Assembly (NCBI RefSeq): GCF_035084215.1
Contig: NC_090336.1
Location: 53,754,001 to 53,818,000 of the forward strand
Source: Heptranchias perlo
Lineage: Eukaryota
DNA length: 64,000 bases
Direction: 5' to 3'
Numbering within the stretch: position 1 is the stretch's first letter; every line of letters starts with the position of its first letter. Below are positions 11,003 through 60,603 of this stretch, in pieces. Both the position numbers and the translations under genes were made by a program. The notes beneath the pieces are model-generated. The model had not been told where the DNA came from. It did no database searches and was given only the letters and a program-made list of their open reading frames with translations.

Positions 11003-11590
11003 CTGAAGGAATCCGCTTGTGCCTCTGAAGAGATGAAGAATCCACGAATGTTTGATGGCAGTTATCGCATTTATAGGGTTTCTCTCCAGTATGACGACAG
11101 AGGTGCACCTTCAGATGGGAACTGCGATAAAATGCTTTGCCACAAAAATTGCACGAATAAGGCCGTATACCCGTATGAGTGCGGCGGTGCTCGTTGAGGT
11201 TCGACTTCTCTGCAAATGCCCGTCCGCACTCCTCACATGCAAAGGGCTTCTCCCCTGTGTGTGTGCGGCGGTGCATCGTTAACTGTTCTTTACGAACAAA
11301 TCTCTTTTCACAATAGTCACAGTTAAAACACTTCTCTTTATCGCGGACCGGTGAACTGGGATTCAGCATCATTTTATTCTTATCACCGAGTCTACTTTGT
11401 ATTTTGTCGCTCTCAAAGTTTAACAGATGCTTAGGTTTATCTTGGGATAGAGTACTGTTCCACTGTTTCAAACCATTAACCAAAACATCCCCAGGCAGAG
11501 TCTCTCCTTCATTATCTCGACAGTCATTCTCAAGCCAAGGCTTTTGAGGGTCACAAATTTCACCTTTTGGAAGAACACCATTAACTGAAT
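11003..11590 (-). CDS. PRDM-like gene: zinc-finger exon copy A (linker + 4 C2H2 fingers), phase 1-1
   Basis: Acceptor tttttataacacag, donor G|gtaag, 588 bp open frame; fingers match copy B except LCR vs LRR. Confidence 0.9.
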
Positions 11591-11864
11591 CTGTGTTATA
11601 AAAATAAATAAGTTTATAAAGGTCCACTGATGGGATTCATAAAGAACTTGCCTAATCAGTGTATACCAAGATTTGGAACTCATGTGAATCTATGCAAAGG
11701 AGCTTCCACAGAAATGTTAGCGCAGTTTCAGCCATTTCTTTCTTCCAAGCAAACAAATGTTAATGTTGTAACATAGTAGCAATGTCATTTAACTTTTCAA
11801 CAGAAGGTCACTAGTCCTTACAAAAAAATCCAAGAATAAAATTCAATTTCAAGGAGTCAGGTAT

Positions 11865-14735: not shown

Positions 14736-15672
14736 AATCAGCCTGCAAGTTCAGGGGATTAGGAGATACGCCGGTCGCTTTACTTGCTGGTCGATTTACG
14801 CTGCTCCACCGATTGCTTCACACAAACAGCATCTCGCCCTTAGCCTCCCCGTTATTTTTAAGAACTTGCTGGATTTGCACATTTATTGCCCATTAAACTC
14901 GCTGCAGAAAGTTAGGGCTGGAACTTAACAGCTTAAGTACCCTTTTAACGATGTGATAATTGTTAAAGCAATGCCAATCAACCTCTCTGGCCCAGAAAGG
15001 GAAAAATTTAACTGTTCAATCTCATTCCTGCATGAAGTAAATTGTTGTTAGAGATTTTAAAAATGTTAAATTTTAAATGTTTTAATTTTTTTTCTTACTT
15101 TTCCTTTCTGACTCTTCTCTCCCTCTTAATCCAATCTTTCTTTCCCTCTCGTGATTTCTCTTTCTGTACCTGATTTGACTCAAATTCACCCTCCTTCTCC
15201 ATCATTGCTCTGTTTCTTTCTCAATCCTTAAATCTCATTGGTTAAGGAGATACCCTTTCGGTTCCGCATTCACCAAGATCCCAGATGCCCCGTTGCCCTC
15301 CCCGTAATCAGCTCGCATTTCCAGCAAGTTACGGCGGAAAAATATTTTGAGCTGAAGAGGGCAGGAAAAAGTCGAACTAACGCGCACACCACGAGATGTC
15401 CCGCTCCAGCAATATCTGGCCCATTATCGCTCAAGGGACGAGGGAGGCAGGCAACAAAGGTGATTCTAGGTCTCAGGAATTTAAGTTACGAATAAAAATT
15501 AAAATAAGAGGTTATATATAATTGAAAGTTTTCAAGGTTACGAAGTGAACTGACAAAACTGATCCAGGCAAATGGTTTACTATGGTGAAGGGTTCAAAAG
15601 TCAGAAAATACAAATTAAAAATTAGAAAATTAGGAATAAGAAAGGAAGTTAGGAGCAACTTTTTCCACCCAC

Positions 15673-15947
15673 CTTGGTCTGTCTCCTCCTCAGTTTTTGT
15701 TCCTTGCTGTTTCTGTTGCACAGAATATTTCCCAGCCACCTCTATTCTGTTATAAGTGCAAAAATGTTCATGTTCCACTGTGAGCGATTTCCTTTTATGC
15801 ACAGGCCTGTTGATTTCATCATCCCCGAGCCAGATGAACAGTTCATGTGCTGGTTCAATTGAGCGGCACACTCTATAATAGATCTTTCCACTGCACTGGG
15901 AAAGGGTCAGATTTTGCTCTGCGGGTGTCTTGGCAAGATTCACAAAC
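15673..15947 (-). CDS. PRDM-like gene: PR/SET C-terminal exon (phase 2-1)
   Basis: Acceptor tttatccag; (R)FVNLAKTPAEQNLTLSQCSGKIYYRVCRSIEPAHELFIWLGDDE..; donor CAAG|gtgggt joins exon 11590 in frame. Confidence 0.85.
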
Positions 15948-17353
15948 CTGGATAAAGTACAGAATTTTTATATCGCATGGGTCACATTTCAATGTTTCCA
16001 CTAGTTATCAGAAAAGTATTCTACCTATTTTTTCTTCTATCTTCTGCTCTAGTGCTTAATTACTTCTAGTAGCATTTATCCAACAAACGCATAATAACAA
16101 TAGGTTGTTATGCAGTAATGAGGGGCTGAAAATCTTAGTGTTCCTTTTCTTTAGCAGGGAAGTGGGAAGAAAATAATCAACGAAAAGTCTGAAGGTACTC
16201 TTGGAAAACAGTGGCGAATTCATGGTGCAAAAATAGTTTTGACCACTGGAGGCTATGACAACATCTACATAACTTACCGAGCATGACAAGACCAAAGTAC
16301 AGGAGTATAGTACTGTGTGGGCTGGCCTGGCACGGAATCAAAATGCCAGCATTTCAAAAAAACACAGACCAATTGCAGCGGACAGGATGGGGTGGGTGAG
16401 CTTCTCACTATTCCCTAGCCTTAGCTGGGTGACAGGAATTGTGTTAAGAGCAGCTGAGGAATGACGCCCCCTCCCATTTTCCCTCTTCTTCATGGGGGAT
16501 GCACCAATCTTACTCTCAACTGTTTTCCTACCCAATTGCTGAAAATAGAAACACCGTCAGAAGTGAACTTGAATTGCGTTCCACCACTGCAACCACAGTT
16601 GCCATTAAAAAGTAGAACTTTTAATTTTGATTTAATTAAACAATAAGACTGTTACTAATTGCTTCCTCAAAGACTTGTGAAGTCTTTCCAGTGAGCAGCT
16701 GAGCACATAAAACTGGTAAAGCCTGTGATTTGATCCCTGGCTTGAGCTGAGTTAGCAGTTCTAAGCAGAGGCATCTGTGGGGTGCTACAATTGGCCTCAG
16801 TGCCTCCAGGTAAGAGAAAGGAAAGTTGACCATTGGTTTTCATTGATCGCTATCCAGTCACTCCAGTCACTCCTGGAATGGTGGATGTGCACGTTGGATA
16901 AGGGCAGGGTTGGACTGAGTTGTGATCGCCTCCCCATGATTGAGTAACTTGCAGACCCTCTACTTTCAACACTTACACGTTAATAATGGTCACTTGGGTG
17001 AGGTACTGGACAACAACCAGCAAAAGAATAGAAAATTGCAAAGAAAAAAAACTGAGGAAGAATCATTAAATTTAGCAGAATATAAAAGGGAGCCATGAAC
17101 ATATTTATGGGCTTAAGTTAACACTATTTATCTTTGGAAAACTTAATTGAAAAGCAGAATAAACCAGTAAATAGTTACACTGTAAAGTCAGGAAATATAC
17201 TCCCCCTAGAGCAATAAAATCACAGGTCTAAAAATGGAGAACGCGCTTTTGGGGAAATCCATATTATTTATGGGACAATAAGCAGAAAATTGCATCTACG
17301 AAGCGAAGCATTAAATATACGATGTGATAAAGAGGGACTAACTGACAACTCAC

Positions 17354-19215: not shown

Positions 19216-19456
19216 ATCTTATCTATGTGACAAAAACTTCAAAAGCAACACCCGGCTGCTTATTGCACTTGTATTCTGATCATTGCAATACTAGCTGCTG
19301 TGGAGTAAAATGGCCATCATAATGCATCAAGCTCGCTGACACTCTACCAACTAAAGAAACAGGTTTGTTGATAAAAAAAAATTCTAGCGTGGGGGGGTGG
19401 GGGAGGGGTGGAATTAGCAATAATAAAAACATGAACAAAAAATAAACTATACATAC

Positions 19457-19728
19457 CATCTGGGAATATAGGTTTTCTGTTGGACCTTGTTCAACTGCAA
19501 TCTGGCCTTCATATGGTCCAAAAAGGACTCCTTTAGGTATGGTCTTCGCAGTGCACCATACTCCAAGCCCTCCCTCTCGATTCCCTGATGGTCCCACTGC
19601 AAGCCCCTGAGGAATGGTGTAAAATGCTCTCGAATGGGTGCCAAACTCAACAGATGTGTCCATGACAAAAACCGGTAGTCCAGCAGCAACAGATCCACCC
19701 ACAAAATACTCCTGACAGTCTTCAAAGA
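19457..19728 (-). CDS. PRDM-like gene: degenerate zinc-knuckle + PR/SET N-terminal exon (phase 1-0)
   Basis: tttttcttag|(F)FEDCQEYFV..PVFVMDT..TIPQGLAVGPS..GLGVWC..IPKGVLFGPYEGQI..YSQM|gtatgt; 272 bp. Confidence 0.9.
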
Positions 19729-19969
19729 CTAAGAAAAACAACAAAAAACAAACTTTACTTTAACAAGGAGCTTTTCTGTCATTTGAGAAAGAACTAAACA
19801 TTCCTCTAGTAGTTTTTCCCAATAACAAGCTTTTAATCAAATTTAAAGGCAAAATCTGTTAATTTAACTTGCACAGAAAGAGTTATAAATTATGAATCTG
19901 CTGATACTCAAAGTTAAAGGGGCACCTCTATTAAAATTGGAGGAGTAGCTTGTGCCACATTTGGCTACA

Positions 19970-21314: not shown

Positions 21315-21807
21315 CTGCAAGAACAAATTGAGTTAAGTTTATCAAAAGGGGAAAGAGGCATGCAAATCTCACAATAGTTAGTGCCCATTCCCAGATACTC
21401 AACCACCAGTTGACAAATCTACAAACACACCAAAGAAATAAATAATGATTTTCAACTTTTGTGGCCATAAAAGCAGCTTGGAGCCGTGGCTGGTTACGAT
21501 CTTATTTTGTTTACAAACTGTCCTGGAGTATCGGGGCTGGGATCCAGCCAGGACTATAAAACACGCTGTTCTCTGCTAGACATAGGATTGCTAGCCAAGG
21601 ACAGGCCTGCCACGTCATCCCTATGGTGTTTTCCACAACATACCCAACGTACTTCTCCAGCAGGCGGCTTTGTAGCTCCAATAAACTGGCGATTCTCCTG
21701 TTGGGATAAATTATTGGGCTTTTAAAAATAAAATGGTGCTTTTAGGGATCAGGGAGTATTTCAGGTTACATTTTTTTCAAATGGAAAGAATTCACCACCA
21801 TCACCTT

Positions 21808-22458
21808 TGTAAGAAAAGCACTATACAAGCTTTCTTTATAATATTGTAAACCTTGTTAAGGAAAAGCAGTATGTCAGCTTTGCTGTGAACAAAGGCTTTC
21901 TGTCTGTCCAAACAAGCTGTTTTAACGACCTTGTGAAAGAGAAGGCCTCCATGGGCAATTAAACATTTGGGCACCAATCGTGTTTATCAGTTAAAAGGGG
22001 AGTCATCCCTAGCCTTGTTACGATTTCCTTGAAGATGGAGTTTGTACCATCCTGAAGGCCACTAATCATTAGCGAGTTGTTAGTTCCAAAATGTTGTGTT
22101 CCTAAGGGAGAAGACTGATAGCAGCCTCATGGGACAGAGGGGATGATTGATGGGAGACACATACAGAACTAAATGTCTAAAATCTGTATAAAGTTGGCTG
22201 CGTTTCCACACATTTCTCAGAGTGCTCTCAGGGCAGGACTCGACTGCTCAAGTAATCAAGAAGTGCACTTCGAAGCCTTGGAAAGTGATCAACTTTGTGT
22301 CAGGTTGTATCAATGTGACCAGCATCTTTGATTGCACTCTTGTATTTTAATCTCTTTGTTACTTGTTATAACTTCTTAATAAAGCCATTATATTTTGGAA
22401 CCAACCACCTTACGACCTTTTGATTAAGGATTCGAACAGTAAAAGTATTTTACTTACA
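21808..22458 (+). repeat. 5' LTR
   Basis: TGTAAG..CTTACA (inverted termini); TATA-like GTATAAAG; AATAAA at 22378; direct repeat of 36066-36712. Confidence 0.93.
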
Positions 22459-22461
22459 TGC

Positions 22462-22479
22462 TGGTGTTCCAGCGTAGGG
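22462..22479 (+). promoter_or_regulatory. Primer-binding-site-like sequence
   Basis: TGGTGTTCCAGCGTAGGG 3 nt after the 5' LTR; TGG pairs with tRNA CCA; cognate tRNA not certain. Confidence 0.65.
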
Positions 22480-22680
22480 CGTGAGGTTTTATTTGGTACA
22501 AACTATAGGTATTTGGGTTATTATGCGAAGTATAAGCATTTGGGTCGTTGTACTTGGTAAATGGGCAAAAGTTGAGATCACAGTTTGGGTCGTGGGAGAT
22601 CTATATAATTGTCCAGTGGTGGTACCGGGGTGAGTTGGTTACCCACGGTTGTGAGTTGATAACATGCTGATCACACGGAC

Positions 22681-23454
22681 TTATGGTGGGCTGGTGCGCT
22701 CACGGTCCGAGTGAGGTGGGCTGGTGCGCTCACGGTCTGAGTGAGGTGGGCTGGTGCGCTCACGGTCTGAGTGAGGTGGGCTGGTGCGCTCACGGTCCGA
22801 GTGAGGTGGGCTGGTGCGCTCACGGTCTGAGTGAGGTGGGCTGGTGCGCTCACGGTCTGTGTGAGGTGGGCTGGTGCGCTCACGGTCCGAGTGAGGTGGG
22901 CTGGTGCGCTCACGGTCCGAGTGAGGTGGGCTGGTGCGCTCACGGTCCGAGTGAGGTGGGCTGGTGCGCTCACGGTCCGAGTGAGGTGGGCTGGTGCGCT
23001 CACGGTCCGAGTGAGGTGGGCTGGTGCGCTCACGGTCCGAGTGAGGTGGGCTGGTGCGCTCACGGTCCGTGTGAGGTGGGCTGGTGCGCTCACGGTCCGT
23101 GTGAGGTGGGCTGGTGCGCTCACGGTCCGTGTGAGGTGGGCTGGTGCGCTCACGGTCTGAGTGAGGTGGGCTGGTGCGCTCACGGTCTGAGTGAGGTGGG
23201 CTGGTGCGCTCACGGTCTGAGTGAGGTGGGCTGGTGCGCTCACGGTCTGAGTGAGGTGGGCTGGTGCGCTCACGGTCTGAGTGAGGTGGGCTGGTGCGCT
23301 CACGGTCTGAGTGAGGTGGGCTGGTGCGCTCACGGTCCGAGTGAGGTGGGCTGGTGCGCTCACGGTCCGAGTGAGGTGGGCTGGTGCACTCTCGGTCTGA
23401 GTGAGGTGGGCTGGTGCGCTCACGGTCCGAGTGAGGTGGGCTGGTGCGCTCACG
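22681..23454. repeat. 30-bp minisatellite, ~26 copies
   Basis: Unit GTGAGGTGGGCTGGTGCGCTCACGGTCYGW, head-to-tail with no spacers. Confidence 0.98.
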
Positions 23455-23589
23455 TTTTTTGGGAGGAGGAAGTGAGTTGGTTAACGTGGCGAGAGATATC
23501 CTCGCACGGACTCACTGTTCGTTTTAATTTTTTTTTTTAAAAAGGGGAGTGTTTACCCATGTCAGAGGAGATTAATAATTGCGCAAATA

Positions 23590-24445
23590 TGGAAGAGCCA
23601 CCAGTAAAAACAACTCTAGTAGATAAGACAAATAAACATATTCAGAAGTAGCTAGGAACTTGTACTTTATTAGTTAAAAACTGTCAAACTTTGTGTGAGG
23701 TTGAGGATCGAGAGAAGGAGTTAACTAAGGAAGAAAGGATCAAAGGTGATGGCTGGAAAGCAGGGATGCTGCTTTTTCAGCTTCAGGAGGTGGAAAGGTT
23801 AAAGGATGAACTGCAGGCGGTTCAGACTAAATATAAAATGCTGAAAGATAAAGCACAGAAAGAGGAGGAAGAGCATAGCAAGATGGACTATGAAAATAGA
23901 AAATGTACAGAGATGCTGCAGGGATCAGTGGCATACATGCAAACGCAGGTAGCAACAAAACACGAGGTTACTCAAAGACAGGCAGAGTCAGAGGAACTTA
24001 AATATAAGTTAGAAAAATCAATGGCTAAAACAAATGAATTGACTGCAGCCACTAAAACTATGGCTGATATTACGAGGAAAGCAAAAGAGACGACCCAAAA
24101 GGGGCCTGATCATGATAGATGTAATACAGAGAGAAAAGCTTAAACAACAGGTGAAATCCCACAGTGGGATGGTACATGTCCTAAGTCAGTGTGGTGTAAC
24201 TGAGGAGATGATAGTGGGAACGAAGGTATAGACTGGGATAACCTCACAGAAAGGGCAGAGTATTACTGGAAAGGGGATGATGACCGAGATCATCATCATG
24301 ATTGAGGTCCGGGGGACCCGAAACCCGGAATGACCCCCACATGTGCGGTCAAACGAGAGGTCAGAAGAGTTAGGGTCGAGGGTGAAGCTCAACTACCAGA
24401 GGATGAAGCTGCAGATGTTGAAAACGCTGAAGGGAACGTGACACA
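23590..24445 (+). pseudogene. LTR element ORF1 N-terminal part: coiled-coil / gag remnant
   Basis: E/K/Q-rich helical ORF 23691-24143 (EVERLKDELQAVQTKYKMLKDK..); ORF from 24330 continues in frame at 30405 once the CR1 is removed. Confidence 0.7.
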
Positions 24446-25323
24446 TAAGAACATAAGAAATAGGAGCAGGAGTAGGCCATATGGCCCCTCGAGCCTGCTC
24501 TGCCATTCAATAAGATCATGGCTGATCTTCGACCTCAACTCCACTTTCCTGCTGATTCCCCATATCCCTTTATTCCCCGAGAGTCCATAAATCTATCGAT
24601 CTCATCCTTGAATATACTCAATGACTGAGCATTCACAGCTCTCTGGGGTAGAAAATTCCAAATATTCACAACCCACTGAATGAAGAAATTCTTCCTCATC
24701 TCAGTCCTAAATGTCCGACCCTTATCCTGAAAATAAGTCCCCTGGTTCTAGACTCTCTAGCCAGGGGAAACATCCTCTCAGCATCTGCCCTGTCAAGCCC
24801 TCTTAGAATCTTATATGTTTCAATTAGATCACCTCTCATTCTTCTAAACTCCAGAAAGTATAGGCCCAATCTAGTCAATCTTTCCTCATAGGACAACCCT
24901 CTCACCCCAGGAATCAATCTACTGAATCTTCATTGCACCGCCTCCAAGGCATGTATATCCTTCCTTAGGCAAGGAGCCCGAAATTGTACACAGTAGTCCA
25001 GGTGTGGTCTCACCAAAGCCCTGTACACTTGCAGCAAGACTTCCTTATTCTTGTACTCCAACTCCTTTCCAATAAAGGCCAATATACCATTTGCCTTCCT
25101 AACTGCTTGCTGTACCTGCATGTTAACTTTCTGTGTTGTATGTACAAGATCACTCAAATCGCTCTGAACACCAACATTTCATATTTTCTCACCATTTAAA
25201 AAAATATTCTGTTTTTCTATTTTTCCTACCAAAGTGAATAACCTCACATTTCCCAACATTATATTCCATCTGTCACCTTCTTGCCCACTCACTTAACTTG
25301 TCAATACCCTTTGCAGACTCTTT

Positions 25324-27374
25324 GGGCTCGATTTTAGGGTCGGGTTTCCTGCGGATTTCCAGCAGGGGGGCCCCGAAAGTCCCGATATGAGGTCACGTGA
25401 CCGGATCGCACCGCGATCCCGACCACTTCCGGGTTCCCCGATGACGTGCGGGGCTGCATGCATGGCCCCCGCTGGTGGGAATCCCGCAGGCAATTAAAGC
25501 CAGCGGGGTTCCACTTGAGAGTACTTACCTTGCTTGTTGAGGTCAGTTAATGAGCTGAATCTGCTGTCAAAAGAGGAAGTGTGGGATTTTACCTGCATCG
25601 CAGACTGTTTCACACACTGGGGGAAACAGTCTCTCTCCAACCAGGCGTGTTGCAGCCAGCAGCCTGTGGCAGCTGCCAAGGTGCACTCCACGGGGGCGAG
25701 CCCTCACCCACGCAGGAGGCCACCGCGTCACATAGGGCAACCCCTGCCCCCCACCACCCCCCGCCAAGCCAGAGGACAGACCGACACGAAACCGCAGCCC
25801 CAGTCCGAGGAACCACCCACCTACCCTGCACAACCCCTCAGACCAACACCTGCCAGATGGGTGGTGCGTGGACACCCTCGGAGGACGAACAGCATGACCA
25901 GCACCAGCAGCCTCGCAGTCCACGCGGTCCACCGCAGAGACGTGGAGCCCCCCAACACGGTGTTGTTGCACGCCCACCTGCACAGCAGGAGGGAGGGCTA
26001 CCGCAGAGAGAGACGCATCGCAGAGGGCACTACCCTCGCCACATGGTCCACAAACCGAGGCGAAGCTCCCCGGACCTCTCCGAGCAGCAGTGCACAGGGA
26101 GGCGCAGATTCGCTCGACATGTAGTCGTGGAGATCTGCAGGCTCTTTCATGCCGAGCTGCTCCTGGCTGGCCCCAGCACCAAGTGCTTACCTGTCGCTGC
26201 CAAAGTCACCACTGCCCTCCACAACTTCTCCTCCGCATCCTTCCAGGGTGCAGCCGGCTACACCGCCGATGTCTCTCAGTGGTCTGCGCGGAAGAGCCCT
26301 GCAAATACACCTGCACCTACTCTGCAGTAACACGATGGGTGGCATCAGTGGTGGGTCCTCATAGTGATACCCAGGAGCGGGCATTATTGGACACAACAGA
26401 CAGGATTCGCGGAGACATGGCAGTGGTGGTGCCAATATAATGTGTGCTGTTTGTTGCTCTGAAATTCAATATAGGTAACACCCATGGCAAACCCTCAGAC
26501 ACCCTTGTGCACCCCCTTCATGCTCACAAAACATTTGCCTTACGCTGCCTACTGCACATATGTGATGCATGCCCTGTGGCTGCAGCACAGGTGGTGGCAG
26601 GTTGAGTGAGGCTGGCCGTGAGGGAGATGCACGAGAGGGTGAGTATGGGATAGAGCCATGAGATTGTATGAGGATTGGGTTGCGTGTTAGTGGCAGGATG
26701 AGTACTGGCGAGGTGAGTAGGTGGAGGTAAGATGAGGATGGGGTTTGAGTGGGTATGAGGGGTGATGTGACAGAGTAGTGTTGGCGGTGCCGAAGGAGAT
26801 GTGGGGTTGGGGCAGTGTTGTGGCAGACGGAGTGTAGGGGAAAGACTTCGTGTTCTCACTGTGGCTGACCTACTGAGGTCATTGCAGCGCCTCCTGCACT
26901 GTCTGCAGGTGGGCGATATGTTGGTTGCGCAGGTGACCCCCTCTGCCACCTCGAGCCAGGCCTTCTTGGTGGCAGAGGCTGGCCGCTTCCTCCCGCCCGC
27001 CGGGTGGAAGATCTCTGTCTTCGCCCTCCTCCTCACCCCATCTGATGATACCTGGGGTGAGGCATCATTAAACTGGGAACAGCCTTCCCCCTGGGCTGCT
27101 CCATGCTGAAATTTGTTCCATTGGTTGCAGCATCTGTCAGTGGAGGACTGCCCCTTTAACTAGAGAGCCTCCAGCTGACAGATCGTACTGCGCATGCGCA
27201 GCCCGCCCGACGCGCAGACCAGCAGCGTGGACCCCGGAGGAGCAGGTAATTGATTCCTCTTAGTGTGTTGCCTGCTACGATCGCGCGGGCAACCCACTAA
27301 TTTCACCGAGCGTGTTGACCACGCTCCCGAAACCCAACCCGCCGGAAACCCGCAGGCCTGGTAACATCGAGCCC
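25324..27374. mobile_element. PIF/Harbinger DNA transposon, internally deleted
   Basis: TIR GGGCTCGATKTTA at both ends, 3-bp TSD TTT inside the CR1; transposase N-terminus on + (LPVAAKVTTAL..SASFQ..DVSQ); Myb/SANT-like remnant on - (KKAWLEVA..QCRRRCNDL). Confidence 0.88.
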
Positions 27375-27516
27375 TTTGTGTCTGCCTCACACCTTATTTT
27401 CCCACCTAGCTTTGTATCGTCAGCAAACTTGGATACGTTACACTTGGTCCCTTCATCTAAGTCATTAATATAGATTGTAAATGGCTGAGGCCCAAACATC
27501 GATCCGACCAAAGAAT

Positions 27517-28351
27517 TGTTTTTACGCAATGTATGTATCATGAAATACATTTAGCATGTAACCACACATATTGTACCAATTATAAGCCTGTTTCAGGGAC
27601 TTTTACCGGGGACAGCCACAGATACCCAGTATATTAAAGTGATCAGCAGGGGAGATATATATTGTAGAGACACAGCTCATCCATTGTTTGAGATGACTGG
27701 GAATGGGTGGGCCGCCTTCTCCCAGAAAGATAACAGCCCATCTCCTCTTGATGAGGTTGAGTACCTCGCCATTGTCCCATGTCATTAGCAGCATCAAGCC
27801 TTCTCCTCCTGATGAGGTTGAATGTCTCGCCATTGTCTCAGCAAGTCAAGATCCTTTTGTCAAGCTGGTGAACTACGTTTGCCTCATTTGTCCTGCCTCA
27901 CTATCTGGACTGGGGATGTTAAGTCAGCTCACCACAGGACTTCCTGCTACACCGTGAATAAAGACACAGCTCAAACCAAGGTCCAGCGTAGAGGATCCCT
28001 CCAGGAACAGCAGGCTAGGTTTGTTAAGGCGGACATGCTGGCAGTAGCCCACGACTGGTTGGAAGAAGGAAAGAAGTCTGCAGAAGGCAGGATCGGTGGG
28101 ATCCAAGAGGGTGGGGCCGTGAGGACCGTGAAAAGCGAGAGGCCAAAGCGCGAGCTCTATCCAGAGTGGAAGCAGGTAACATATCTCCAGTTTCCATCCT
28201 GTAAACTGCTACTTAAATACTGCGTGTACTAAACTGTTCTTCGTATTAAAGTACTTGCCACCATAACCAACTGGGGTCGACTCGAATCTTTTGGAACCGG
28301 GAAGTGAGTAGTGGACAAGGGCTCCCGAAGACTATATATATAGTCCCAACA
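27517..28351 (+). mobile_element. Probable solo LTR of a second family, inside the CR1
   Basis: TGTT..AACA ends, ~40-bp direct repeat at 27740 and 27802, ATTAAA near the 3' end; no clean TSD. Confidence 0.5.
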
Positions 28352-29392
28352 AATTATCTTGTGTAACAACCTTTTATGTGGCACCTTATCGAATACCTTT
28401 TGAAAATCCAAATATACACATCCACTGGTTCCACTTTATCTACCCTGCTAGTTACATCCTCAAAAAACTCTAATAAATTGGTCAAACACGATTTCCCTTT
28501 CATAAAACCATGCTGACTCTGCCTAATCATATTATGATTTTCGAGGTGCCGTGTTACCACTTCATTAATAATGGATTCCAGATTTTTTTGTGACGACCGA
28601 TGTCAGGCTAACTGGACTTCAGTTCCCTGTTTACTCTCTTCCTCCTTTCTTGAATATTTGCTACCTTCCAATCCATTGGGACCGTTCTTGAATCTAGGGA
28701 ATTTTGAAAGATCACAACCAATGCATCCACTATCTCTGCAGCCACCTCTTTTAGAACCCTAAGATGTAGGTCATCAGGTCTGGGGGATTTGTTGGCTTTT
28801 AATCCCTTTAATTTCTCCAGTACTTTTTCTTTACTAACATTAATTACTTTTAGTTTATCACTCGCATTAGACCCTTGGTTCCCCAATATTATTGGTATCC
28901 TTTTTGTGTCTTCTACTGTGACAACAGATACAAAATATTTGTTTAACGTCTCTGCCATTTCCTTATTCCCCATTATGATTTCTCTTGTCTCAGCCTCTAA
29001 GGGGCCCACGTTTACTTTCGCTACTCTCTTCCTTTTTACATACTTGTAGAAGCTCTTACAATCTGTTTTTATATTTCTTGATAGTTTATTCTCATTCTAT
29101 TTTCTCCCTTTTCATCAATTTTTTGGTCATCCTTCGCTGGTTTCTAAAACTCTCCCAATCCTCAGGCTTACCACACTTCTTGGCAACATTATAAGCCTCT
29201 TCTTTTAATCTAATACTATCCTTAACTTCTTTAGTTAGCCACTTTTCCCATGGAGTTTTTATTTCTCAATGGAATGTACGTTCGTTGACTATTTTGAAAT
29301 TTTTTTTTAATGTTTGCCATTGCTTATCTACCGTCATACCTTTTGATCTAATTTCCCAATCTACCTGAGCCAACTCGCCCCTCATACCTATG

Positions 29393-29493
29393 TAACTAGG
29401 ATTGTAGATAAGGCTTTTATGGGGATGGGGGAGGGATCAGGTGTGGGGAAATTTAGAAATCTGAAGAGAAAAGTCAAAGCATTACAGCAGTGT
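29393..29493. repeat. Exact 101-bp inverted copy of 30274-30374
   Basis: Base-by-base reverse complement. Confidence 0.95.
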
Positions 29494-30404
29494 TCATTTA
29501 AGTTTAAGATTCTAGTTTCGGACTTAAGTATGTCACTCTTGAACTCAATGTGAAATTCTATTATATTATGATCACTCTTCCCCAGAGGATCCTTTACCAT
29601 GAGATTACTAATTTACCCTGTCTCATTACTCAAGACAAGATCTAAAATAGCTTGTTCCCTGGTTGGTTCCACAATGCATTGTTCTAGGAAACTGTCTTGA
29701 ATGCATTCCAAGAACTCATCCTCCAAATTACCTTTGCCAATTTGATTTGTCCAGTCGATATGAAGACTGAAGTCCCCCACGATTATCGCATTACCTTTGT
29801 TACAAGCTCCTATTATTTCTTGATTAATGCTCTAATAGTATAGCTACTGTTAGGGGGCATATAAATTACTCCCACCAGTGTTTTCTGCCCCTTGTTATTT
29901 CTCCACCCATACTGATTCTACTTCCTGATCTCCCGAGCCAAGATCCTTTCCCACTACTGTCCTTATGTCATTCTTTATTATCAGGGCTACCCCCCTCCTT
30001 TTTCAATTTGTCTGTCTTTTCCAAACATTAAGTATCCTGGAATATTTAGTTCCCAACCTTGGTCACCTTGCAACCACGTCCCGGTAATGGCTACTAGATC
30101 AAACCCATTTATCTCTATTCGTCTATCTTGTTACAAATGCTTCGTACATTCAGATAAAGCGCTTTTAATTTTTTTACCCTTTTTCCCTGCTTTGACGTTA
30201 TTCGCTGATGCTCCATTACCATTAAACTCTCTGTCCCTTCCTGTCACCCTCTGTTTATCTTACCCAAATCGTTACACTGCTGTAATGCTTTGACTTTTCT
30301 CTTCAGATTTCTAAATTTCCCCACACCTGATCCCTCCCCCATCCCCATAAAAGCCTTATCTACAATCCTAGTTATTCGATTCACCAGGACACTGGTCCCA
30401 GCCC

Positions 30405-30870
30405 TGACACAGACTATCGAGATCCCCTATACGAGTATGCAATTACAGGAATTAGTGAAAACTATTCCTAACATAAAAGTCAGAGAAGACCCAGTAGCTT
30501 CAATAGCAGGAATAGATCAAACTGCTGAATTGAACGACTGTGACGACAGAGAGAAGGAGCGAATGGTACTATGTGCCTGTATCCCCAATGTATTCAAGTG
30601 TCTGCCAGCAGGGATACGAGAAGGCAGGCAGAAATAGGCGGATACTGTAGCTGCAGTCTGGAAAGCAGTGGGGATAGGAGGTAGTGGAGGTCAGGCTGCC
30701 TTGCAAGCTTTGATGAATTGTAAGCAAGAGAAAGATGGAGGGACCTTCACCACACCAGGCTTGGGTGAGGACACAGACTGTGAGTTTGAAACTTTGAGTT
30801 CGTGCAGAATGGGGTTAAGTCACAAACATCAGAAATTGAAATACGGTTTAAGTAGAAAAGGGTAGTCTAT
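30405..30870 (+). pseudogene. gag capsid-like remnant
   Basis: TQTIEIPYTSMQLQELVKTIP..ELNDCDDRE..ALQALMNCKQEKD; position between the coiled coil and integrase. Confidence 0.6.
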
Positions 30871-30964
30871 GGTGGAATCAAGGAGAAAAGGAGAGTGTTA
30901 CAAACAACACAATGTGTTCTTTTGTTTTCAGTGTACTGTCTCTTTAAAATGCCTATCCTAATTG

Positions 30965-31172
30965 CCATGATGTGGAGATGCCGGTGATGGACTGGGGTTG
31001 ACAATTGTAAACAATTTTACAACACCAAGTTATAGTCCAACAATTTTATTTTTAATCCCACAAGCTTTCGGAGGCTCCACACCACCTGAGGAAGGGGGAA
31101 GCCTCCGAAAGCTTGTGGGATTAAAAATAAAATTGTTGGACTATAACTTGGTGTTGTAAAATTGTTTACAAT
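30965..31172 (-). mobile_element. Short fold-back Penelope-like element
   Basis: Perfect ~73-bp inverted arms around CTGAGGAAGGGGGAAGCCTCCGAAAGCTT; TSD TATCCTAATTG at 30954-30964 and 31173-31183; same family as 879-1052. Confidence 0.75.
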
Positions 31173-32102
31173 TATCCTAATTGTGCGTGCTTTCTTTTCG
31201 CTGTTGCGGGCTACACCCCTTTTTAATGCTTGTTATGTGTTTTTCTCTTTTGCGTTGAGTAATGATGAGCATGAATTGATGTCTTAAAATTTTGACATTG
31301 GAGGTTATTCTATTCGTTTAATGATATTGGTTGTATTGGAAAGTGATGGCTGTTGGCAAACTGACAGCATAACTTTTGATCCTGTGATCAGAAAAAAAGC
31401 GACCGACAAAAAGGAAAAGAATGAATAAGACAACAATCTGGAGATGTCTTGTGATTGTACTATCATAGAATCATAGAATGGTTACAGCACAGAAGGAGGC
31501 CACTTAGCCCATCGAGTCCGCACCTTATGCAAGAACAATCCAGCTCATCCCACTCCCCTGCCCTTTCCCCATACCTAAATACTAAATACTTTAAATTGAG
31601 ATTTCATTGTAGGGAAAAAGATAAAATGCAGCTTTAAAGAATTACAAGTTACAGCTGCAGGCTGGTCTCTGGTTATAAATTAATTTGAACTTCTTCGAAG
31701 CACTTTGTGCTATTGTGATTGACTCCTCCCCCACTCTCTTAAGGTTTTGACAAACAAGAAGTAATTAACCCTTACTTCTGTATTGTTGAAGTATTTGGAC
31801 AGTACTAGTTTTTTTTTAAGAAGTTGGCCTGACAACTTTTGAGCTTCCAGCATTTCAATCTCAAGTCACAGTTTTCTGAAGTGGAAAGAGCAGTTACTAA
31901 ACAAACAGTTTTATTGTTTCACCCCCTTCCTTCATGGGTGCATGGTGAGGATCCTTGGATTAAATCAGGTGAGGCAGCGCCCTCCCTGGACCTCAACACG
32001 AGAGTGTGACCATGGACAGGTTTACTCAAGTACCGCCCTACCAATTGGCCACAATAATAAGTGCCGCCACAAGTTTGGTCCTGATGTAAAGGGTCTTGAA
32101 GT

Positions 32103-32262
32103 GGGGACAAGGTGATGGTGAAACTGAACAATGTCACAGGAAAGTGGGCAAAGAGATTTGAAGAACCCTTCTCGACGATAGACAAATTGAATAATAATAT
32201 GTACAAAATTCAGACTGATAAAAAGCATAGGTAGGTACATATTAACCAGATAAAGAAGTGGC
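32103..32262 (+). pseudogene. Integrase C-terminal (GPY/F-type) remnant
   Basis: GDKVMVKLNNVTGKWAKRFEEPFSTIDKLNNNMYKIQTDKKHR*VHINQIKKW. Confidence 0.75.
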
Positions 32263-33489
32263 AGGGACATCGAAATGGTACATGCCATCATTCCTATAAT
32301 CCTTTTATGGTTTATGGACAATGACAATATGCAAGAATGAGGAGGACGAGACCGCCTCCACCGACTCCAGAAGGACATTTCCAGGCTATGAGCCTTTAAT
32401 AACATGGGATGGGGAGTGGAAGCTCGAACATTCTGAACCCTCCTTATCTGAGGGAATAAATGAAATCAATCAAAGACAGAAAGAGAAAGACTTAGAGTTG
32501 GCAATTCCAAAGTCAGCCGTCCTAGGTATATCTGAGAGTGGGAGAGACACGGTTAATTTCAGACAGGCTGCAAGCTCCAGAGAGAGAGAGAGAGAGAGGA
32601 CAGAGAAGCTCGGCCGTCTCTCGTGTTTGTTTTTCTGGATTTGTTTCTGTTAAAGGGATTATTCTTTAAAAAAATGAATTGACGAATTACCCCTTAGGCT
32701 CTCAAGAAGAGCTACAATAATGGATTTTTGTTTTTCTTTCCTTTTAAAGCAGGAGACTGGTTTTCAGGACTCGTATGAATGTTGATGGTGCAGGATTACC
32801 AAGAGTAGTTCTTTGACATAAAAGTGGCTTCACAAAGTTACGGAGCAATCTAGTGGTGTGAAGAATTTAAGACCTTAACTGCAGACATCGGCAGATATCA
32901 AATGTCACAACATAGTGACGTTTTGGACTAAGACTTGGATTTCGAACATTCAAAATTACTAGAGAAGGAAAAGAAATCATCAGCCTTGAGCCAAGCTGCT
33001 ATTCCTCTTTTGAAAACACTTGGAGTTGTTTTGCTTTAACCTCTTTGTTTTCTGAGACCAAGTGCTTAAAGGTGGGGAAGGTATATCCAAAAGTAATTAC
33101 AAGCACTTCTGTCTCTACTGTAAAACCACAAAGCCTGGACATAATTTGTTTATGAAATTGATATGATAAATTGATATAAGTTGCTATTCAAGCACTCGAG
33201 TGGGGAAAATTTACCTGTAATTTAAAGGGATAATCAAATTATATTTTAAAATAAAAAAAAGTCCAGTCTAAATGGTTCCTATCCAATGCTGTGTATCAAG
33301 GAATAAAATTGTACATCGACAAGTCCTGTCAGTGCAACAATATTGTTTTTTAATTGGGATAATGAAAAGCAGTTCAAGAAGTTAAGTAAAATAAACAAAA
33401 AATGTTTTGATTTTGGACTCGACTGTAAATATTGTATTGGACAGTAAAGTTCCTCCAGGGTTCATGAATGGTAATATAATGGGATGGGT

Positions 33490-34158
33490 AAAAGTCAACA
33501 TACAGGTGCAGCAGGTAATCCAGAAGGCAAACGGAATATTGGCCTTTATTTCTAGGGGGATGGAGTATAAAAGCAGGGAAGTCATGCTGCAACTGTACAG
33601 GGTGCTGCTGAGACCACACCTGGAGTACTGCGTACAGTTCTGGTGCCCTTATTTAAGGAAGGACATACTTGCATGGGAGGCAGTTCAGAGAAGGTTCACT
33701 CGGTTGGAAGGGTTGTCTTTTGAGGAAAGACTGAACAGGTTGAGTCTATACTCATTGGAGTTTAGAAGAATGAGAGGAGGTCTTATTGAAACATACAAGA
33801 TTCTGAAGGGACTCGATAGGTTAGATGCTGAGAGGATGTTACCCCTCATGGGGGAATCTAAAACTGGGGGGCATAGTCTCAGAATAAGGGGTCGTTTAAG
33901 ATGGAAATGAGGAGGAATTTCTTCTCCCAGAGGGTCGAGAATCTTTGGAATTCTTTACCCCGAAAAGCTGTGGAGGCTGAGTCATTGACTACATTCAAGG
34001 CTGAGTTAGACAAATTTTTGATCAGCAAGGGAGTCAAAGGATATGGGGAAAAGGCAGGGAAGTGGAGTTGAGGTAAAAATCAGATCAGCCATGATCTCAT
34101 TGAATGGCGGAGCAGGCTCGAGGGGCAGAATGGCCTATTTCTGCTCCTATCTCTCATG
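33490..34158 (+). mobile_element. CR1 LINE, 5'-truncated, inside the LTR element
   Basis: KANGILAFI..RPHLEYCVQFW..LIETYKI and 3' tail. Confidence 0.9.
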
Positions 34159-34578
34159 GATGAGAGGAAGTGGTTGAGGATATAAGATAGAAACAAGGAA
34201 ATTACACCACCAAATGGGAATTTTTCTAAGGTCATTGCCCCAGATGGTTATGGGTGAATTTCAGGAACCAAACCAAAAGGATTAGGGAAAGATATATGAG
34301 TGCATCCATGAGTAACATAAATCCCTGGGCATGATTTACCAAAGATGTCAATCTGGTATAAATGTACAATCTAGTGAAAGTCAGGAAAGAGTAGTTGAGA
34401 ATAGTTAATTGATAACATTCTCTTGGAGATGTTTGTGTCCATGCCTATAATGAACAATGAAAAAAACTGCATTTGATAGCCTGGCCACGACCTGAGACAT
34501 CAGGACCAAGCAGGGGAAGATAAGCAAAGACCTCCAGACACCCCCGATCTTTTGATATCATAACCTGAAAGCCTAAGA

Positions 34579-34835
34579 ATGGCTACAGTGGACATGAAAG
34601 ATACAAATGTATGTCGCCATTGGAAACGGAGACCAGGATGAAGGACGTGATTACAAAGGCCTACAGCCTGGTGAGCTATTGGAACCACTCTTCCAACAGA
34701 GCAGTTGCTCTTACAGGATTGAATCTTACTGGACATATGAAGTGTGCCATGGAAAACACATTCACCAGTACTTTGAGGAAGAAGAAACTGGCCAGCAGAA
34801 AGTTAATATTCAAGAACATTACCTGTGATATGTTG
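34579..34835 (+). pseudogene. ERLEC1: Intron-less ERLEC1 (XTP3-B) coding fragment, first MRH domain region
   Basis: [64 protein letters not shown] matches recalled vertebrate ERLEC1 [45 protein letters not shown]; frameshifts at the 5' part. Confidence 0.88.
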
Positions 34836-35773
34836 CGTGTGAGGCAACTAGCATGCAGAAGTGCTTGATGAAGATGCACTGAAGAATGGGTCTCAGACAC
34901 GCTCAGTTACTTGACAACAGCATGACATGAAAAGGTTAATGTGGCCCAGGAGAGTGAGAAATCCTTTTATGCAAGGCACTGACACACACTCCACAGAGAA
35001 ACCGACTAATTAATGAAACAATCAGGAAACACTGGTACCAACCAGAGGGATTGAAATTGTAGTAAAGAGGGACATAGTAATTTGGATTTCCAAAATTTAG
35101 GGTTAGGTTCCTTTGAGTTAACTATGAAACTGACTGAAATAATACTTAGAAAATATCCACAAGATGGAAATCAGTAAAAGGAGAGCTGGAGAATCTTTTA
35201 AGTCTATGATTTCTTGGTATTATGATATACGTTAGGTTTCAGTATTAACCAAATGAAACTTAGGAGCAATATGTATATGTCTATGTGTGTTTATGTAAAC
35301 ATAATGTTAATAAAATTTAACTCAAGGTGATCTTAGACAAGACCAAGAAGAAAGTTATGGGGTAAGGTGAAAATTGACCCAGAGTGGTTTCATTCAGGTT
35401 GGAGATGTAGGAATATGGTTTAAACTCAACATAGTAAATTATCCCATCCCATGTAGCGTCTGGACATTTAGCAAGAGGGTGGTGCTGGTGGAGACAAGGA
35501 TGCTGTTCAAGAGTCAACACGGGGGTGAGATAATTTACAGCTAGGAAAGAAGACCAGAGATGCGTACGTGCAGCCCCAACAGCTGAATATTATAAAGATA
35601 GGACACTTTGCACCCAAAAGTAGGAGCTCTTGGGACAGTCAGAAGTCCACAGCCCACTTAGATCAGAAGACCAAATGGGTCCGATAGGCATGTGATGCTG
35701 ACAAGATGAAAACATTAGATAAGGCCATGTGAGGTCACCAGGGGCTGTTGGAGATTAAGATTCAAAGACTGAA

Positions 35774-35968
35774 ATGAAACAACACTTTGCTGACATTGGA
35801 AAGAAAACATCTACCCTTTCAAATCATGCGTGGTGGGAAACTATATATAATGACAGACAACATCCTTGGGCTAGAATTCTCTCTCAGGTTTTAATCCTTG
35901 CTCAGTTTGTTTTTACTGTAATTGCTATCATAATGCTTCATTTAGTATTCTCAATGTATAAAAGCTGA
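35774..35968 (+). pseudogene. Envelope-like C-terminus (Trp-rich segment + transmembrane helix)
   Basis: HAWWETIYNDRQHPWARILSQVLILAQFVFTVIAIIMLHLVF, ~100 bp before the PPT and 3' LTR. Confidence 0.6.
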
Positions 35969-36053
35969 ACAGGCAAATGGATGTAGTGCGCTACCAAGCC
36001 GTGAGCTAAAGATGGGACAGGAGTATGAGCCTAAAGATTTTTCCTGTAGGCTC

Positions 36054-36065
36054 AGAGGAAGGGAA
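36054..36065 (+). promoter_or_regulatory. Polypurine tract
   Basis: AGAGGAAGGGAA directly abutting the TG of the 3' LTR. Confidence 0.85.
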
Positions 36066-36712
36066 TGTTAAAAAAAGCACTATACAAGCTTTCTTTATAA
36101 TATTGTAAACCTTGTTAAGGAAAAGCAGTATGTCAGCTTTGCTGTGAACAAAGGCTTTCTGTCTGTCCAAACAAGCTGTTTTTATGACCTTGTGAAATAG
36201 AAGGCCTCCATGGGCACTTAAACATTTGGGCACCATCTGTGTTTATCAGTTAGAAGGGGAGTCATCCCTAGCCTTGTTACAGTTTCCTTGAAGATGGAGT
36301 TCATAGCATCTTGAAGACAACTAATCATTAGGGAGTTATTAGAAGCAAAATGTTGCGTTCTTAAGAGAGAAGACTGATAGCAGCCTCATGGACAGAAGAG
36401 ATGATTGATGGGACTAAATGTCTAAAATCTGTATAAAGTTGGCTGCTTTTCCACACGTTTCTCAGAGTGCTCGCGGGGAAGGTCTGGACTGCTCAAGTAA
36501 TCAAGACCTTTGAAAGTGCACATTGAAGCCTTGGAAAGTGATCAACTTTGTGTCAGGTTGTATCAATGTGACCAGCATCTTTGATTGTACTCTTTGTCTT
36601 TTAACCTCTTCGTTAGTTGTTATAACTTCTTGATAAAGCCATTATACTTTGGAACCAACCACCTTGCGATCTTTTGATTAAGGACTCGAACGGTAAAGGT
36701 ATTTTACTTACA
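36066..36712 (+). repeat. 3' LTR
   Basis: Direct repeat of 21808-22458 with scattered substitutions and small indels; ends CTTACA. Confidence 0.93.
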
Positions 36713-37129
36713 GCCTTCAAAGCCAGTTGTTTTTGATGCAGAACTAACCTTTATGGACCGAGTGTGGGAGGCAGAAGCACCTGAATCTGTTGTCTAAGTG
36801 CCAAAACAAGAGCTGCTCTTAAGTAGATGGATTAAAGTAAATATTTGTATACGTGTTTTGATAAATCTCATTTAAACAAAAGGTTCCATTATACTGTGAG
36901 ATTTATCACATGGAGCAAATGTCTCTAAATTTACATAGTTCTGAACAGAATTTAGTATATTTGCTGCTTGATGTGTGTTAGTTAGTGCATCAGAAAAAAA
37001 ATACCCAATTCCATTCCCCTGCTCTATTACTGTCAGTGCAGGAATATGCTGCTGGGGAGGCAGTCACTCAAAAACAAATGTCTACAACACATACAGTGTC
37101 ATCTACTGTTACCGACCCGCCACTGGCAG

Positions 37130-50092: not shown

Positions 50093-52540
50093 TTTTTTTA
50101 TTCTTTCATGGGATGAGGGCGTCGCTGGCAAGGCCAGCATTTATTGCCCATCCCTAATTGCCCTTGAGAAGGTGGTGGTGAGCCGCGTCTTAAACTGCTG
50201 CAGTGTGTGTGCTGAAGGAAACCAGTATTAGTAAGAAAATAGTGCTATGGAAATTAATGGGGCTAAAGACTAACAAATCCCCAGGGCCTGATAATCTGCA
50301 TCCCAGAGTACTAAAGGAAGTGGCCCTGGAAATAGTGGATGCATTGGTCATCATCTTCCAAAATTCTATAGACTCTGGAACAGTTCCTACAGATTGGAGG
50401 GTGGCAAATGTAACCCCACTATTTAAAAAAGGAGGGAGAGAAAAAAAAAGGAATTACAGACCAGTTAGCCTAATATCAGTAGTGGGGAAAATGCTAGAGT
50501 CTATTATATAAGATGTGATAACAGAACACTTGGATGGCATTAACGGGATTGGACAAAGTCAGCATGGGTTTATGAAAGGGAAATCATGCTTAACAAAACT
50601 ACTGGAGTTTTTTGAGGATGTAACTAGTAGAATAGATAGGGAAGAACCAGTGGATGTGTATTTGGATTTTCAGAAGGCTTGTGATAAGGTCCCACACAAG
50701 AGGTTAGTGTGCAAAATTAAAGCACATGGAATTGGGGGGATTATACTGGCATGGATTGAGAATTGGTTGACAGACAGGAAACAGAAAGTAGGAATAAATG
50801 GGTCTTTTTCCGGGTGGCAGGCAGTGACTAGTGGGGTACCGCAGGGATCAGTGCTTGGGCCCCAGCTATTCACAATATATATCAATGATTTGGATGAGGG
50901 AACTAAATGTAACATTTCCAAGTTTGCAGACGACACAAAGCTGGAGTGAAATGTGAGCTGTGAGGAGGATGCAAAGAGGCTCCAATGTGATTTAGACAAG
51001 TTGGGTGAGTGGGTAAGAACATGGCAGATGCAGTATTACGTGGATAAATGTGAGGTTATCCACTTTGGTTGAAAAAACAGCAAGGCAGATTATTACCTGA
51101 ATGGTGATAGATTGGGAACAGGGAAGGTGGAACGAGACCTGGGTGTCCTTGTACACCAGTCGCTAAAAGCGAGCATTCAGGTGCAGCAAGTGGTTCAGAA
51201 GGCAAGTGGTATGTTGGCCTTCATTGCAAGAGGATTTGAGTACAGGAGCAGGGATGTCTTACTGCAGTTATACAGGGCCTTGGCGAGACCACATCTGGAG
51301 TATCGTGTGCAGTTTCGGTCTCCTTATCTGAGGAAAGATGTCCTTGCCATGGAGGGAATGCAATGAGGGTTTACCAGACTGATTCCTGGGATGGCAGGAC
51401 TGATGTATCAGGAGAGATTGGGTCAACTAGGCCTATATTCACTAGAGTTTGGAAGAATGAGAGGTGATCTCATTGAAACATATAGAATTCTAACAGGACT
51501 AGACAGACTAGATGCAGGGAGGATATTCCCGATGGCTGGGGAGTCCAGAACCAGGGGTCACAGTCTCAGGATACGGGGTATGCCATTTAGAACCGAGATA
51601 AGGAGAAATTTCTTCACTCAGAGGGTGGTGAACCTGTGGAATTCTCTACCACAGAAGGCAGTGGAGGCTAAGTCATTAGATGTATCCAAGAAGGAGATGG
51701 ATATATTTCTTAATGCTAAAGGGATCAAGGGAAATGAGGAAAAAGCGGGAACAGGGTACTGAGTTAGACGATCAGCCATGATCATTTTGAATGGTGGAGC
51801 AGGCCCGAAGGGCTGAATGGCCTGCTCTTGCTCCTATTTTCTTTGTTTCTATGTATCTATGTTCTCCCACAGTGCTGTTAGGAAGGGAGTTCCAGGATTT
51901 TGACCCAGCGACGATGAAGGAACGGCGATATATTTCCAAGTCGGGATGGTGTGTGACTTGAAGGGGAACGTGCAGGTGGTGTTGTTCCCATGTGCCTGTT
52001 GCCCTTGTCCTTCTAGGTGGTAGAGGTCGCGGGTTTGGGAGGTGCTGTCAAAGAAGCCTGGGTGAGTGATGCAGTGCATCCTGTAGATGGTACACACTGC
52101 AGCCATGATGCGCTGGTGGTGAAGGGAGTGAATGTTTACTGTGGTGGATGGGGTACCAATCAAGCGGGCTGCTTTGTCCTTGATGGTGTCGAGCTTCTTG
52201 AGTGTTGTTGGAGCTGCACTCATCCAGGCCAGTGGAGAGTATTCCATCACACTCCTGACTTGTGCCTTGTAGATGGTGGATAGGCTTTGGGGAGTCAGGA
52301 GGTGAGTCACTCGCCGCAGAATACGCAGCCTCTGACCTGCTCTTGTAGCCACAGTATTTAAGTGGCTGGTCCAGTTAAGTTTCTGATCAATGGTGACCCC
52401 CAGGATGTTGATGGTGGGGGATCCGGTGATGGTAATGCCATTGAATGTCAAGGAGAGGTGGTTAGACTCTCTCTTGTTGGAGATGGTCATTGCCTGGCAC
52501 TTGTCTGGCGCGAATGTTACTTGCCACTTATCAGCCCACG
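50093..52540 (-). mobile_element. Second LINE family (CR1/L2 superclade), 3' part, split by a CR1
   Basis: WADKWQVTFAPDKC..ILGVTID..YKAQVRSVMEY; A-rich tail; same family as 55157-56495. Confidence 0.85.
50219..51860 (+). mobile_element. CR1 LINE nested in the second LINE family
   Basis: KSPGPD..YRPVSL..DFQKA..ADDTKL..tail; host sequence TGAAGG|TTCTCCCAC resumes after it. Confidence 0.93.
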
Positions 52541-55156: not shown

Positions 55157-56495
55157 TTTTCTTTTTTTATTCGTTCATGGGAAGTGGGCGTCGCTGGCGA
55201 GGCCAGCATTTATTGCCCATCCCAAATTGCCCTTGAGAAGGTGGTGGTGAGCCGCCTTCTTGAACCGCTGCAGTCCGTGTGGTGAAGGTTCTCCCACAGT
55301 GCTGTTAGGAAGGGAGTTCCAGGATTTTCACCCAGCGACGATGAAGGAACGGCGATATATTTCCAAGTCGGGATGGTGTGTGACTTGGAGGGGAATGTGC
55401 AGGTGGTGTTGTTCCCATGTGCCTGCTGCTCTTGTCCTTCTAGGTGGTAGAGGTCGCGGGTTTGGGAGGTGATGTCGAAGAAGCCTTGGCGAGTTGCTGC
55501 AGTGCATCCTGTGGATGGTACACACTGCAGCCACAGTGTACCGGTGGTGAAGGGAGTGAATGTTTTGGGTGGTGGACGGGGTGCCAATCAAGTGGGCTGC
55601 TTTGTCCTGGATGGTTTCGAGCTTCTTGAGTGTTGTTGGAGCTGCACTCATTCAAGCAAGTGGAGAGTATTCCATCACACTCCTGACTTGTGCCTTATAG
55701 ATGGTGGAAAGGCTTTGGGGAGTCAGGAGGTGAGTCACTCGCCACAGAATACCCAGCCTCTGACCTGCTTTTGTATCCACAGTATTTATATGGCTGGTCC
55801 AGTTATGTTTCTGGTCAATGGTGACCCCCAGGATGTTGATGGTGGGGGATTCAGCGATGGTAATGTCGTTGAATGTCAAGGGGAGGTGGTTAGACTCTCT
55901 CTTGTTGGAGATGGTCATTGCCTGACACTTGTCTGGCACGAATGTTACTTGCCATTTATGAGCCCAAGCCTGGATGTTGTCCGGGTCTTGCTGCATGCAG
56001 GCACGGACCGCTTCATTATCTGAGGGGTTGCGAATGGAACTGAACACTGTGCAGTCATCAGCGAACATCCCCATTTCTGACATTATGATGGAGGGAAGGT
56101 CATTGATGAAGCAGCTGAAGATGGTTGGGCCTAGGACACTGCCCTGAGGAACTGCTGCAGCAATGCCCTAGGGCTGAGATGATTGGCCTCCAACAACTAC
56201 TACCATCTTCCTTTGTGCTAGGTATGACTCCAGACACTGGAGAGTTTTCCCCCTGATTCCCATTGACTTCAATTTTACTAGGGCTCCTTGGTGCCACACT
56301 CAGTCAAATGCTGCCCTGATGTCAAGCGCAGTCATTCTCATTTTACCTCTGGAATTCAGCTCTTTTGTCCATGTTTGGACCAAGGCTGTAATGAGGTCTG
56401 GAACCGAGTGGTCCTGGCAGAACCCAAACTGAGCATCGGTGAGTAGGTTATTGGTAAGTGCCACTTGATAGCACTCTCGGCGACACCTTCCATCG
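55157..56495 (-). mobile_element. Second LINE family, RT and 3' end
   Basis: [27 protein letters not shown]; tail CCCATGAACGAATAAAAAA. Confidence 0.88.
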
Positions 56496-60138: not shown

Positions 60139-60603
60139 CTAAAACACTCCAGGTACAAGGCGGTAAGCCACTGCATCCGTATAACGCTTCCAGTCCTTGC
60201 CATATTTGTTTAAGCAACGATGCTCATCCCTGATACAGCGATGGACCAGCAAAATTGTCATGTAGATGATGTAGAAGTATGGCAGGAGGTGTCCGAATCC
60301 ACAGGCCAGGCAGTAGGAAAGGGAGCCAATAAGATCCCCGGTGTAGTTAAAATGGCGAGCCACCCCCCAGAATCCAGAGACCATCAGCTTACTGTAGTGC
60401 TTTTTACCATCAATGGACACATAGGAACATTCAATATACGCAGGAATCCTGCCCCAGATCTTGCAGTTTCCATCTGTGCGCCGGAAGAGATCTTTCTGGT
60501 GGTTTGTCATTCTGAAAATGTAATAGCCAACCAGCCCCAAGAGAAGGACACCGACGACATTGGCTGTCGATAGTTGTACTGGGTTGTAGACTAGGTACAG
60601 GCC
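60139..60603 (-). CDS. DHCR7: 7-dehydrocholesterol reductase, last coding exon
   Basis: tctcag|[67 protein letters not shown]. Confidence 0.97.

Follow-up and report, generated by a model that had tools for sequence, protein, structure and literature searches.

Within a 64,000-nt stretch of the genome of the cartilaginous fish Heptranchias perlo (hereafter the window), we find a real processed fossil of ERLEC1, lodged inside a defective LTR element and consistent with a known kind of gene capture. The piece is an internal stretch of coding sequence, in sense with the element, and template switching during reverse transcription (LTR-mediated retroposition) is the explanation that accounts for it best and the probable one.

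Identity of the fragment and its origin in a spliced mRNA

The fragment is ~240–255 bp long and has the following limits and content, together with a possible outlier upstream.

34585–34825 (outer limits 34579–34835), plus strand: processed ERLEC1 mRNA fragment, from PDB, Pfam, database and tblastn matches; it would hold two complete exons (81 and 78 nt), preceded by the end of another and followed by the start of the next
34476–34496, plus strand: possible extra 21-nt ERLEC1-like patch, from tblastn

The stretch 34598–34825 matches the human ERLEC1 chain 8KES_E in the PDB with E=5.9e-39, whereas its match to OS-9 is much weaker (E=3e-6), which rules out OS-9 as the source in this search. A Pfam match to the MRH domain (PF07915, E=5e-9) covers profile positions 2–36 of 74. 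The top two of 320 database matches are elasmobranch ERLEC1 proteins, and the highest identities (83–86%) are likewise elasmobranch. Among the ERLEC1 proteins of 17 elasmobranchs, that of Heptranchias perlo itself lies nearest, being identical at 69 of 81 codons and separated from the fragment by a minimum of 13 nucleotide changes, against 16–22 for the other 16.

The core at 34585–34825 is firm, the first two codons (34579–84) are both unlike ERLEC1, and the final ~10 nt are doubtful. An extension of the match downstream of the core was rejected, its score being equalled by 105 of 697 random segments. The patch at 34476–34496 lies ~90 nt upstream of the core, is more diverged than it, and resembles the ERLEC1 sequence that precedes the captured part. 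Its score is equalled by five of 697 random segments, and it ranks 1–11 among ~128,000 positions with lengths chosen post hoc; it may be chance or the trace of extra template switches. A tblastn search with seven full-length proteins found no other ERLEC1 exon in the 64-kb window, and this, together with the three exon borders that the fragment crosses, rules out a genuine exon of the host gene. The window holds no second copy of the insert, and no close short ERLEC1-like protein was found among 12 matches, all of them distant (43–64% identity), in a class of sequence where pseudogenes are rarely annotated.

Exon borders were inferred from proteins, 272 records that bear the ERLEC1 name (those without a name were omitted), and not from an alignment to the host gene; the available part of PMC9917206 gives no exon coordinates for ERLEC1. 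Exactly 27 residues are missing in four of the 272 proteins, the adjoining 26 are missing in one, and a break or short extension marks the third border in six. All 12 elasmobranch isoform pairs differ by a single Gln at this third border, a difference that has the pattern of a putative tandem splice acceptor. Transferred to the fragment, the borders fall at 34636/37, 34717/18 and 34795/96, with an intron at none of them, and the fragment carries the longer of the two forms, in which the additional Gln is present. Because three inferred borders are crossed without an intron, the fragment derives from a spliced ERLEC1 mRNA, and the statement in the first-pass annotation that the stretch spans several exons is borne out by these exon-skipping and tandem-acceptor isoforms. 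Each end of the fragment lies within an exon, and both are a long way short of the 3′ end of this 484-aa gene.

The carrier LTR element and its surroundings

The fragment lies inside one LTR pair with intact ends, which bounds a carrier element at 21808–36712. This carrier is an old, defective LTR element with several nested insertions, and its features are as follows.

21803–21807: left target-site duplication (TSD), 5 bp, matching 36713–36717 at 4 of 5 positions
21808–22458, plus strand: 5′ LTR, TG...CA, 89.2% identical to the 3′ LTR with gaps
22462–22479, plus strand: PBS-like motif in the sequence, 3 nt past the LTR and beginning with TGG
22685–23454: tandem array of a 30-bp unit in the leader (25.7 copies with 97% matches)
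23559–24440, plus strand: broken, coiled-coil-looking ORF, possibly gag N-terminal or accessory (translation; sub-threshold Pfam matches only)
24440–30374, minus strand: nested CR1-like LINE pieces, recognized by matches to other LINE copies; they break up the gag region and are interrupted in turn
25324–27374: Harbinger-like element (a lead only) that has TIRs at its ends and a 3-bp duplication
30374–30860, plus strand: broken gag capsid-like segment, a lead (Atlas feature score 0.93 to the DUF7041 cluster, 142 shared features)
32100–32260, plus strand: integrase C-terminal SH3-like piece (PF24626, E=5e-4; PF22938, E=0.074; both under the cut-off)
32275–35965, plus strand: env-like region with many stops and frameshifts and a hydrophobic start (position, hydropathy)
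33490–34158, plus strand: 3′ fragment of a CR1-like LINE, inserted in the env-like region; its end lies ~420 nt short of the ERLEC1 piece
36054–36065, plus strand: polypurine tract (PPT), from sequence
36066–36712, plus strand: 3′ LTR
36713–36717: right target-site duplication

The LINE pieces are provisionally labelled CR1-like, and the TIR element Harbinger-like. The nested LINE block at 24440–30374 contains an endonuclease match (PF14529, E=1e-4) and also ~850 bp (27505–28354) that match nothing else in the window and look by eye like the solo LTR of another family. Pfam gave no match on the TIR element's own ORFs; close to a DDE_Tnp_4 ORF at ~53.6–54.5 kb lies a stretch that matches the element at 75%. 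For the gag capsid-like segment Pfam is blank and the best PDB match has E=0.56. Since only ~1.2 kb separates this segment from the integrase piece, most of pol is gone from the carrier, and in the forward frames scanned this ~1.2 kb gave no match to RT. A small palindromic insertion (30967–31177, 92.7% self-complementary), with a relative at ~877–1053, lies in the gap of the missing pol. A related solitary LTR at ~3265–4033 is 75–84% identical in parts to the carrier LTRs and has no evident TSD; the carrier family has other members.

The regions flanking the fragment may be env. One pointer is a terminal TM-like segment (35891–35947), whose mean hydropathy of 2.61 is the highest of the region and which lies ~100 nt before the PPT. 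Searches for env homologs gave no match by any of five routes: a word search with the TM piece returned 21 candidates, none of which scored; Pfam on 19 frames returned nothing beyond the integrase tail and some coiled-coil matches that fell below threshold; a full HMMER search of one frame gave two matches, both on the off-frame ERLEC1 reading; the best PDB match had E=0.66; and Atlas gave no usable match. The first-pass annotation had described ~255 bp of ERLEC1, in sense, between the integrase tail and the env TM. Its ERLEC1 identity, orientation and position stand, and its env is softened here to env-like, a term that reflects position and hydropathy.

The window as a whole is vertebrate DNA rich in repeats, LINE fragments being numerous. 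On its minus strand, 2497–3216, 10884–11636, 15515–15967 and 19283–19759 are occupied by PR/SET-domain exons (PF21549) and by two exons for C2H2 zinc fingers, the latter 96.7% identical over 550 nt. They appear to belong to a PRDM-family gene with a recently duplicated zinc-finger exon that starts near the carrier 5′ LTR and is possibly PRDM9-like. An uninterrupted 173-aa sterol-reductase C-terminus at 60142–60660 (minus strand; PF01222, E=2.7e-48, with a PDB match too) is presumably the large last exon of DHCR7. A 679-nt direct repeat (51861–52538 and 55288–55966, 92.8% identical) has a DDE_Tnp_4 ORF together with a LINE piece between its two copies.

Age, junctions and probable route of capture

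Across 636 aligned sites the two LTRs differ by 49 substitutions (K2P 0.082), which gives a per-LTR divergence of 49/1272=0.039. Of the fragment's 81 codons, 12 encode a residue other than that of the Heptranchias protein, and the nonsynonymous divergence is at least 13/197=0.066 (95% CI 0.036–0.11), or 11/192 (0.057) without the doubtful first two codons. Fisher tests of these values against the per-LTR divergence give p=0.085 and 0.24, respectively, and the wide confidence interval includes the LTR value. No sign of an age below that of the element can be seen in the fragment, whose coding sites have changed no more slowly than the LTRs. Its presence at integration fits, because a divergence of 0.057–0.066 is no lower than that of each LTR.

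No poly(A) follows the fragment: over the following 100 nt the longest run of A is 2. The longest words common to its flanks are of 5 nt (34563/34821 and 34474/34826), and shared words at least as long turn up in 689 of 1000 random pairs; the word at 34563 and 34821 could be a very short TSD. The absence of poly(A) and of an evident TSD, remarked on at first reading, is thus confirmed, and the hallmarks of a LINE-made processed pseudogene, an mRNA 3′ end with poly(A) and a flanking TSD, are not those of this fragment. A LINE–mRNA chimera was discarded because the closest LINE end lies ~420 nt from the fragment. Pack-TIR capture was likewise discarded, the inverted repeats around the fragment being short, imperfect and at chance level.

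Template switching fits because the piece is internal, in sense, tail-less and at least as diverged as the LTRs. A spliced ERLEC1 mRNA of the long form, with the extra Gln, would have been co-packaged with the element RNA. The reverse transcriptase would then have jumped onto the ERLEC1 mRNA, copied an internal coding stretch of ~250 nt and returned to the element RNA, yielding a chimeric, defective LTR element that would have integrated with the fragment already present and decayed thereafter. The established parts of this sequence of events are the mRNA origin, the sense orientation, the place within one LTR pair, the lack of a tail and the decay. The same anatomy (internal, tail-less, without a TSD, between LTR sequences) characterizes the cases described in PMC5131818. 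Against template switching, the several later insertions in the element create a real prior for later arrival, sense orientation has even odds by chance, and the repeated 5-nt word (34563, 34821), at chance level, may be read as a short TSD. The original preference for template switching over LINE retroposition survives in its multi-exon, tail-less form without an above-chance TSD, and loses its hint of function and its identification of env.

The main rival, a serious possibility that we nevertheless rate as unlikely, is insertion after integration, in which a LINE reverse transcriptase delivered a piece of ERLEC1 cDNA by internal priming or as the patch of a DNA break. LINE activity is abundant in the window, the carrier has accepted several nested insertions, and 5-nt words are repeated at the junctions; that no second copy appears in the window or among short proteins points the same way, weakly, as pseudogenes are rarely annotated. 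CR1-type LINEs, however, generally need their own 3′ tail, and the fragment has no poly(A) or A-rich end, is an internal piece truncated on both sides and shows a divergence no lower than that of the LTRs. Were divergence somewhat over the LTR value to be given weight, a transfer at the DNA level, by recombination or gene conversion from an older processed ERLEC1 pseudogene, would explain it and perhaps also the more diverged patch at 34476–34496. Such a transfer demands an extra event, though, while the window contains no other ERLEC1 sequence and we know of no older processed ERLEC1 pseudogene here, and we consider it highly improbable.

Decay of the captured sequence

Whether it arrived by template switching, as we favour, or later, the captured frame is now broken, as the first-pass annotation had stated: two frameshifts, near 34594 and near 34617, divide the core into three reading blocks, and a stop follows at 34826. 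In the host protein the first MRH domain comprises residues 105–197, and the fragment holds about half of one MRH profile, probably too little for a folded lectin. Seven of the 12 changed residues hit positions that are invariant in 17 elasmobranchs, where 63 of the 81 positions are invariant. Given these changes, the frameshifts and the stop, the captured ORF is not intact and shows no sign of purifying selection, nor is there any sign that the fragment functioned as a protein at any time. It is a fossil and not a working lectin; the earlier hint of a functional lectin beside env finds no support, only part of the first MRH domain being present and no selection signal seen.

A selected transduction would require that a family carrying an Env–MRH fusion, or an ERLEC1 decoy, altered the ER quality control of Env and spread. 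The fragment does lie within the env-like region, ERAD is described as acting on viral glycoproteins, and captured genes in the crocodilian ERVs of PMC4299795 are kept under purifying selection. What remains of the first MRH domain (profile positions 2–36 of 74), the substitutions at invariant sites, the internal frameshifts with a stop directly after, and the lack of any fusion among the 120 longer matches listed all speak against it, and we would be surprised if it were correct. The same strong doubt applies to a fuller scenario, in which a chondrichthyan retrovirus-like family, possibly outside the described classes, would have taken up part of the ER quality-control lectin ERLEC1 within env and multiplied the chimera, whether as a fusion with Env, as a decoy or as an RNA directed at host ERLEC1, with the upstream patch as a record of several template switches.

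Comparison with known captures

Tan et al. 2016 (PMC5131818) describe LTR-mediated retroposition in fly, mosquito, zebrafish (5/7), chicken (4/10), mouse and human, with junction microsimilarity and replacement of part of the element as hallmarks. The ERLEC1 copy resembles the cases described there as an internal, partial mRNA copy between LTR-element sequences with no poly(A) or TSD. Those cases are young, with microsimilarity and replaced sequence demonstrated, whereas the ERLEC1 copy is old, known from one element copy alone and hosted by a cartilaginous fish, a group absent from the six species of that account. FAM8A1, captured by HERV-K (Jamain et al. 2001, as cited in PMC5131818), is similarly a processed host sequence within an ERV that is now a pseudogene, but it is another gene, in a primate, with microsimilarity shown. 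Among the crocodilian ERVs described in PMC4299795, nectin3 replaces env in CrocERV31 and KIT-ligand lies between pol and env in CrocERV29; as with ERLEC1, a host mRNA occupies or adjoins the env position of a non-mammalian ERV. In contrast to the ~80-codon broken piece seen once here, the nectin3 and KIT-ligand captures are reported to have ORFs of almost full length and copy numbers of six and nine, and to evolve under purifying selection.

The carrier has a 5-bp TSD, as do ERV3/ERV4 (PMC4299795, Table 1), but also an SH3-like integrase tail, and ERV3/ERV4 are said to be without a GPY/F equivalent. Its coiled-coil-looking ORF recalls the optional smc gene of lokiretroviruses, as does its long env-like region (PMC7947760). 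The carrier is without an RT to place it, and its likeness to the lokiretroviruses lies in the TSD, the ORF and the env-like region only. The five host classes listed for lokiretroviruses in PMC7947760 omit cartilaginous fishes.

Significance

A search of titles and the openings of abstracts in the open-access literature found no report of an ERLEC1 retrocopy or of its capture by an endogenous retrovirus. The mechanism itself is already well documented by the reported FAM8A1, crocodilian KIT-ligand and nectin3, and zebrafish precedents, and the insert would carry greater weight only if it were family-wide and selected, which the present evidence does not suggest. If the template-switch reading is true, LTR-mediated retroposition would be extended to cartilaginous fishes. 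The fragment is also a clean molecular record, a fossil that keeps a minor-looking tandem-acceptor splice form common to living sharks and rays.
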